The notes under the pieces were generated by a model that worked only from the letters and a program-made list of their open reading frames with translations, was not told the DNA's origin and did not search any database. DNA of 64,000 nucleotides from Schmidtea polychroa. Taxonomy: Eukaryota. The stretch is taken from assembly GCA_044892525.1 (NCBI GenBank), contig CM097885.1, positions 9,736,001 to 9,800,000 of the forward strand. The letters run 5' to 3'. The translations under genes were made by a program, and so were the position numbers. Position 1 is the first letter of the stretch. The number at the start of each line of letters is the position of its first letter. Shown in pieces: positions 37,106-37,404 of the stretch.

Positions 37106-37404
37106 AGTAGTGGATATAAGACCCTCATGCCCTCAACCCTCCAGATGTAGGTGCACTCCCTATAGCATATTTTATACTAAAAAGACAATAATTCCTTTCA
37201 TTTTTAATCCTTTTATTCATTTATTTCAAAAACATATACTCAAAGCTTTCCAGCCTTAAACCCCATAAAAATAAAGAAAAAAGGAGATGAAAAGGGAAAA
37301 GCACGGCTCCAGGTCGGGTTTCGGGCATGAGGGTCTTATATCCACTACTTATAGTTATTGAGTTGGCAAGTCACCATCTTGGCAAATATAAGCTGCCAGT
37401 TTGG
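37106..37404 (+). repeat. Left terminal inverted repeat (299 bp)
   Basis: Reverse complement of 52278-52576; two mismatches noticed by eye. Confidence 0.95.

Follow-up and report, generated by a model that had tools for sequence, protein, structure and literature searches.

An inverted copy of the terminus within the terminal repeats of a Polinton family in Schmidtea polychroa

The element at the locus and its genes

The window, that is, the whole 64,000-nucleotide stretch of S. polychroa DNA that was analysed, carries a Polinton/Maverick (adintovirus-type) element of 15,471 bp (37106-52576), which was identified by its terminal inverted repeats (TIRs), its target-site duplication (TSD) and its core genes. 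The left TIR (37106-37404, plus strand) and the right TIR (52278-52576, minus strand) are each 299 bp long and are 99% complementary, with two mismatches, and the same 6-bp sequence, GAGAGT, lies before the left end (37100-37105) and after the right end (52577-52582). The element splits the gene of a MULE/FLYWCH transposase, the 5' part of which is located at 52625-53458 on the minus strand (PF10551, PF04500); an open reading frame at 36646-37128, also on the minus strand, is likely the 3' part of this gene, and empty-site contigs connect the two sides. In contigs of all four public runs (4/4), the left host flank runs straight into the host DNA on the far side of the right TSD, and the boundaries of the element are thereby fixed. 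The MULE/FLYWCH transposase gene that was hit is itself a high-copy gene, and in the host flanks of two other copies (L156 and L155) the elements seem, by eye, to be inserted in polymerase-like genes of other Polintons. Elsewhere in the window, two long inverted repeats about 9.5 kb apart (5374-5732 and 14781-15370) form a pair of their own and likely belong to another transposon.

A double jelly-roll major capsid protein of 446 aa is encoded at 37696-39036 on the plus strand (PF21738, E 1.9e-26), followed on the same strand by a retroviral-type integrase of 476 aa with an N-terminal PLA2-like domain (39084-40514; PF00665, E 8.9e-12; PF08398, E 6.6e-9). The packaging ATPase (A32, 268 aa) lies on the minus strand at 40519-41325 (PF04665, E 3.2e-7), and the plus-strand product of 41341-41844 (167 aa) is weakly pX-like, its match to PF05829 (E 0.0032) being under the curated cut-off. 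Two further plus-strand reading frames are candidates only: that at 42726-43202 (158 aa), which has no relevant Pfam match, we take from its motif and position to be a maturation protease, and that at 43237-44019 (260 aa), which has no Pfam match, is presumably a minor capsid protein. A protein-primed type family B DNA polymerase (pPolB) of 1618 aa is encoded on the minus strand at 47353-52209 (PF03175, E 6.4e-7, in the C-terminal 718 aa), and a PDB sequence search with this polymerase returned no useful match.

In the consulted parts of PMC8097293 and PMC8502044, Polinton/Maverick elements are described as having a 6-bp TSD and TIRs that end in (AGT)2//(ACT)2 or (AG)3//(CT)3, with reported TIR lengths of 46-1,447 bp. 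The window element agrees with the Polintons and adintoviruses of these texts in its 6-bp TSD, its (AGT)2//(ACT)2 ends and the length of its TIRs, as well as in its pPolB, integrase, ATPase and capsid genes, and by the features given there it belongs to the Polinton/Maverick class. In the window element, integrase and PLA2-like domain form one fused protein (39084-40514); the accessible part of the adintovirus paper has a PLA2-like domain joined to a pX-like domain. The family is extremely abundant in this genome (781 Mb, AT-rich), and a genome-wide search with the capsid gene gave 3,259 candidate matches.

The terminal cassette and the pairing of its arms

The element starts with an outer arm of 27 bp that opens with (AGT)2 (37106-37132, plus strand), and an exact inverted copy of these terminal 27 bp constitutes an inner arm at 37323-37349 (minus strand). 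Between them lies a spacer of 190 bp (37133-37322), pyrimidine-rich in its outer half, purine-rich in its inner half and without a conserved fold; beyond the 27-bp stem there are two mismatches and then five more pairs (37135-37139 with 37316-37320). The inner part of the TIR (37350-37404, plus strand) contains short repeats and differs between subfamilies. At the right end the inner arm (52333-52359, plus strand) is again an exact 27-mer, and the outer arm (52550-52576, minus strand) has one mismatch at 52570 (TIR position 7). The earlier note had reported perfect terminal repeats at both ends; three of the four are indeed exact, whereas the mismatch in the right outer arm went unmentioned. 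The cassette is 244 bp long, as described there. When the window was searched for the 27-mer at up to three mismatches, four matches were found against 0.00 expected, a result seen in 0 of 100 shuffles.

A genome-wide search for the pattern of terminus, gap and inverted terminus detected 153 cassettes with the arm type of the window (control, 0), and a second, non-overlapping pattern detected 2,006 cassettes whose arms belong to three further types (none in the control), which together amount to at least 2,159 arm-bearing cassettes. To avoid selecting by TIR, 20 ends were drawn from 95 scored capsid-gene matches. Fifteen of these ends, picked by the capsid gene alone, had an inner arm with a match of at least 20/24; the remaining five consisted of two with a shifted arm, one with a shortened cassette and two without an arm. 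Absence of the internal repeat from other family members had been named as grounds for dismissing it, and by both counts the repeat is present in them.

The arrangement was also observed in a distant relative on JGI contig Ga0316202_10006276 (L229), which carries capsid and ATPase genes and whose capsid is 29% identical; this locus starts with an AGTAGT-led arm of 21 bp that has an exact inverted copy 150 bp apart. L229 was the only one of 36 metagenomic loci with an AGTAGT-led inverted pair, the other 35 being mostly short and possibly holding no element end. Scans of viral contigs with the capsid protein and with an alignment found no relative.

Arm pairing was evaluated in 141 cassettes of 234-260 bp, which came from 139 of 142 loci and some of which duplicate one locus; left out were L008 (a cassette of 353 bp that contains an internal duplication, 24/24), L085 (which has a decayed outer end) and L142 (20/24). 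Pairing was 96-100% at positions 1-26, and was 69% at position 27 and 28% at position 28. The arms were perfect over 26 nt in 119 of the 141 cassettes, with 29 distinct perfect arm sequences, and 14 of the 26 positions were variable. Among 20 hand-picked representatives (20 rows, of which L189 was misaligned but retained), two-sided changes were found in 18 of 27 pairs, which was matched in 0 of 500 shuffles, and slid controls were 31-45% paired; the test tallies sequences rather than events, and kinship inflates such counts. The spacer alone folded no better than its shuffles (median z of -0.3 and -0.1 for 29 arm types). We considered, and rejected, a single long hairpin spanning the whole cassette, because its fold z of -8.5 stems from the arms and the spacers alone are unstructured. 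The two-sided changes in the arms, taken together with the unfolded spacers, therefore argue that the constraint lies in the mutual match of the arms and not in one particular sequence or in a long hairpin. The proposal that each end can fold into a local panhandle is supported by this covariation and by the 42-nt templated extension found at L253 (see below). A terminal sequence paired with an internal complement is a feature of Streptomyces-type telomeres, and holds for the window element too.

Ends that depart from the usual design

In each of two copies checked at both ends, a short deletion had removed the inner arm from left and right alike, and the TSD was present. The junction that deletes the arm occurs 623 times, or in roughly one of every five ends that were counted. 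Because arm-less copies have TSDs and because this junction recurs 623 times, the inner arm is not required. That arm-less ends might outnumber all others was considered and rejected, given 623 occurrences compared with at least 2,159 arm-bearing cassettes. Fifteen unpaired arm-less ends were probed and two far ends were found; those arm-less elements for which both ends were located, four only, were all like-ended (4/4, including L152 and L158). A common lineage has a fixed outer-inner match of 20/24 (7 of 15 loci), and in L108 and L153 the outer arms depart from their own inner arms, which argues that the terminus is not recopied from the inner arm in every cycle. We conclude that the inner inverted terminus is a real, family-wide and non-essential end design.

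Seven of 39 TSD-matched elements had unlike ends, with a cassette identity of 0.69-0.83. In such elements the outer arm showed 0-2 differences from its own inner arm, compared with 2-6 from the far end, and in five unlike-ended pairs the local duplex was more favourable than the far duplex by 5-16 kcal/mol. Two unlike-ended copies that reside at different sites are 98.1% identical over 15 kb, and two others are 91-98% alike to them; since near-identical unlike-ended copies occupy different sites, the asymmetry of the ends is inherited and not corrected, and the spread of such elements speaks for ends that act locally. The 14.9-kb element L278/L279 (G000:C1:6493452-6508347), which has one TSD, possesses termini from different arm families that are only 12/24 alike. 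A lineage with left and right TIRs 69% alike was noted at several sites with clean TSDs (G000:C3:124021198-124036130, C1:199333781-199348655). Another copy, L051 (G000:C1:99477379-99480065), is an internally deleted element of 2,687 bp that has retained both cassettes and the TSD.

At L253 (G000:C1:150349222-150349478) the DNA that lies beyond the inner arm reappears, inverted and exact over 42 nt, directly after the outer arm. The insert measures 47 nt in total, and next to it comes a host duplication of 131 bp instead of 6 bp, so that one end is joined cleanly and the other through the 47-nt templated insert. This footprint is the product to be expected if a free 3' end folds onto the inner arm and is extended, and repair then joins it to the host; the locus looks like a one-ended integration completed by repair, in which the extension could have been made by a host repair polymerase. 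L253 was obtained in a targeted search for interior flank on both sides of a cassette (1 of 180 distinct cassettes), and a search of the same kind found no fold-back extension footprint in a second family. L253 was also considered as a giant palindrome, which was rejected after a search for arm-to-arm matches of at least 100 bp found none.

The commonest family, put at about 1,160 ends because 29 of the first 50 entries belonged to it, was searched for inner-type arms that lack the usual neighbour base, a search that would catch most solo and flipped forms. Four exceptional inner arms were recovered, one being a point change and three being inward deletions of 1,170, 2,128 and 2,872 bp, each of which has its start precisely at the inner terminus and shows microhomology of 0-1 nt. 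Two of the three deletions have a normal far end and a TSD, and the far end of the third was not found. The inner terminus may thus be cut occasionally, a reading drawn from a deletion search without a matched control, and the extra integrase or cleavage site put forward in the earlier note is suggested, at most, by these three junctions.

Among the 141 cassettes, 138 run on into the element interior, none is flanked by a 6-bp direct repeat and no terminal cassette is flipped; likewise, the four exceptions from the family of about 1,160 ends included neither a solo nor a flipped form. Because neither form occurred among the cassettes examined, the ideas that the cassette mobilises as a mini-element and that it inverts as a routine event both fail. 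Strand-change joints were absent from the joints listed for contigs of the four runs, and contigs drop rare forms. At L148 (G000:C1:80.094 Mb) a truncated flipped cassette of another subfamily, of which a single copy was found, lies just inside a normal cassette.

Possible role of the inner arm and its relation to known systems

On balance, the inner arm is probably an accessory fold-back handle for the repair of ends or for the restart of synthesis. Under this reading, which draws on integrated copies and assembled contigs, the only forms examined, the relevant structure would be the inverted copy of the terminal 24-34 bases that sits about 245 bp inward at each end. Protein-primed strand displacement by the element polymerase would free a single strand, the 3' terminal arm of which could pair with the inner arm across the 190-nt spacer, and a local stem would then replace the 15-kb end-to-end panhandle. 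Such a stem would let the polymerase restore lost terminal bases or begin the second strand, and might also let the two arms convert each other now and then. Local pairing would free the left and right ends from the need to match, and the arm-less lineages would presumably resort to pairing with the far end.

The consulted part of PMC11161782 attributes a terminal-protein domain to Polinton polymerases, and protein-primed displacement is described, in the accessible text of PMC11886824 and PMC4046053, as yielding a single strand that is thought to pair its two ends. In the standard Polinton model, as relayed in the part of PMC4046053 available, the two far ends must pair; direct evidence for a panhandle is said, in the available part of PMC11886824, to be lacking even for PRD1 and adenovirus. 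According to the consulted part of PMC4150772, origins of phi29 are weak when they bear a single-stranded extension, be it 5' or 3', which makes repair or 3' self-priming likelier than a protein-priming origin. Both the replication of Polintons and their exit from the chromosome rest on the hypothetical model of far-end pairing, and the arm-bearing, arm-less, mismatched and unlike-ended lineages are natural variants that bear on it.

The inner arm could instead be a second binding site, inverted and on double-stranded DNA, for the integrase or the terminal protein-polymerase, kept by selection for the same sequence and cut by the integrase on occasion. The spacing of the arms, held near 234-260 bp, would fit such a site, as would the three of four exceptional inner arms that are inward deletions starting exactly at the inner terminus and the similar junction in L149; however, the deletion search was built for junctions at that single position and had no matched control. 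Binding sites tolerate mismatches, yet at 14 variable positions each arm matches the other exactly, the extension in L253 requires base pairing, and no solo cassette was present among the 141 or the four exceptions, so that we consider a binding site possible but rather unlikely. If the arm were a functionless by-product, left by an old fold-back duplication and converted occasionally when the end is single-stranded, it would be understandable that the 623 arm-less ends and the lineage with fixed mismatches thrive and that the spacer has no conserved fold. One short deletion removes the arm at once, and neutrality therefore predicts many independent losses, whereas a single widespread loss was seen among the ends inspected; the arm is kept at one distance in no fewer than 2,159 ends from many subfamilies, and even L229, at 29% capsid identity, keeps it. 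We therefore judge a by-product to be unlikely.

The geometry of the cassette permits 3' self-priming, and L253 shows that such priming can occur, both of which would be expected of a parvovirus-type terminal hairpin that replicates by a rolling-hairpin mechanism with terminal resolution; the truncated flipped cassette inside the normal cassette of L148 could be counted on the same side. Symmetric resolution, however, predicts flip and flop, and flipped forms numbered 0 among the 141 cassettes and 0 among the four exceptions, with no strand-change joint listed. In addition, L253 is not a giant palindrome, and the 13 reading frames of the element, several of which lack any Pfam match, gave no match to HUH/Rep. 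A rolling hairpin is thus quite improbable, and its symmetric form is largely refuted. That the 244-bp cassettes are MITE- or IS-like mini-elements and the Polinton a composite transposon is hardly tenable: each cassette does have two terminus sequences, and ends have been exchanged between subfamilies as units, but 0 of 141 cassettes had a flanking 6-bp direct repeat, 138 of 141 continue into the element interior, and none of the four exceptions in the largest family was solo. The fold-back handle remains the reading that we prefer.

The literature searched yielded no account of Polintons that carry a spaced inner copy of their terminus, although subscription papers were thinly covered and an earlier mention is possible. 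The consulted parts of PMC8097293 and PMC8502044 make no mention of a palindrome, a hairpin or an inner inverted terminus, and those of PMC8363768, PMC11296320, PMC8532177, 10.1101/2023.08.22.554363 and 10.64898/2026.10.13.758929 make none of a spaced inner copy. The remark that this is not a standard Polinton feature holds in so far as the literature searched is concerned; in this genome, by contrast, it is the majority state, though a dispensable one.

The nearest known structures in the literature consulted come from Halocafeteria virophages and PLVs, whose terminal palindromes are gap-free. The available part of bioRxiv 10.64898/2026.07.28.741278 reports terminal palindromes of 52 nt, screened with a gap limit of 10, ties them to replication genes other than pPolB and proposes hairpin priming. 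As far as that text goes, these viruses and the window element both have self-complementary sequence at the extremity of the TIR, beside the TSD; the Halocafeteria palindromes are nearly free of a gap, whereas the arms of the window element are 190 nt apart and a pPolB is present. The screen used there would miss the design described here, since its gap limit of 10 falls short of a 190-nt spacer. For the protein-capped telomeres of Streptomyces, the consulted parts of PMC4513846 and PMC5449611 report that a 3' fold-back is extended in vitro and that truncated ends are repaired on a fold-back template, which by analogy only may serve as a precedent for end repair in the window element. Those telomeres have, in the same sources, a 13-nt terminal palindrome, tightly packed hairpins, the dedicated proteins Tap and Tpg and an internal origin; in the window element, by contrast, the spacer is unstructured, no match to the Tap/Tpg families was found, and sequence and enzymes are unrelated.

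The terminal hairpins of parvoviruses and AAV occur as flip and flop. As far as the partly available sources describe them, they share with the window element a 3' end able to self-prime, and the window element differs in showing no flip/flop, no Rep match and no folded spacer. Composite transposons such as Tn5 and Tn10 have inside and outside ends. The window family resembles them in its four terminus sequences and in the deletions from the inside end, but its cassettes encode nothing and were never found solo.

L253 can be viewed as a fossil of a folded-back, extended end. A broader and rather doubtful proposition is that the ends of many animal Polintons are self-sufficient: once nicked at the outer terminus, the 3' end would fold on the inner arm and prime copying out of the chromosome. 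If this were true, it would account for the exit of integrated Polintons with neither excision nor a 15-kb racket, and also for the spread of unlike-ended recombinants and the origin of palindromic derivatives. Screens that demand matching TIRs would overlook elements with unlike ends, and spaced arms would escape palindrome screens that set a small gap limit, so that the design may go unnoticed in other animals. The size of the arms, about 27 bp, suits tests with short synthetic DNA and purified enzymes. Variants of the arm were noted at single loci: in L150 the cassette measures 296 bp and its stem 34 bp, and two inner arms occur in tandem in L200 (1501-1828; second copy 21/24) and in L229 (145-243; second copy 17/21).
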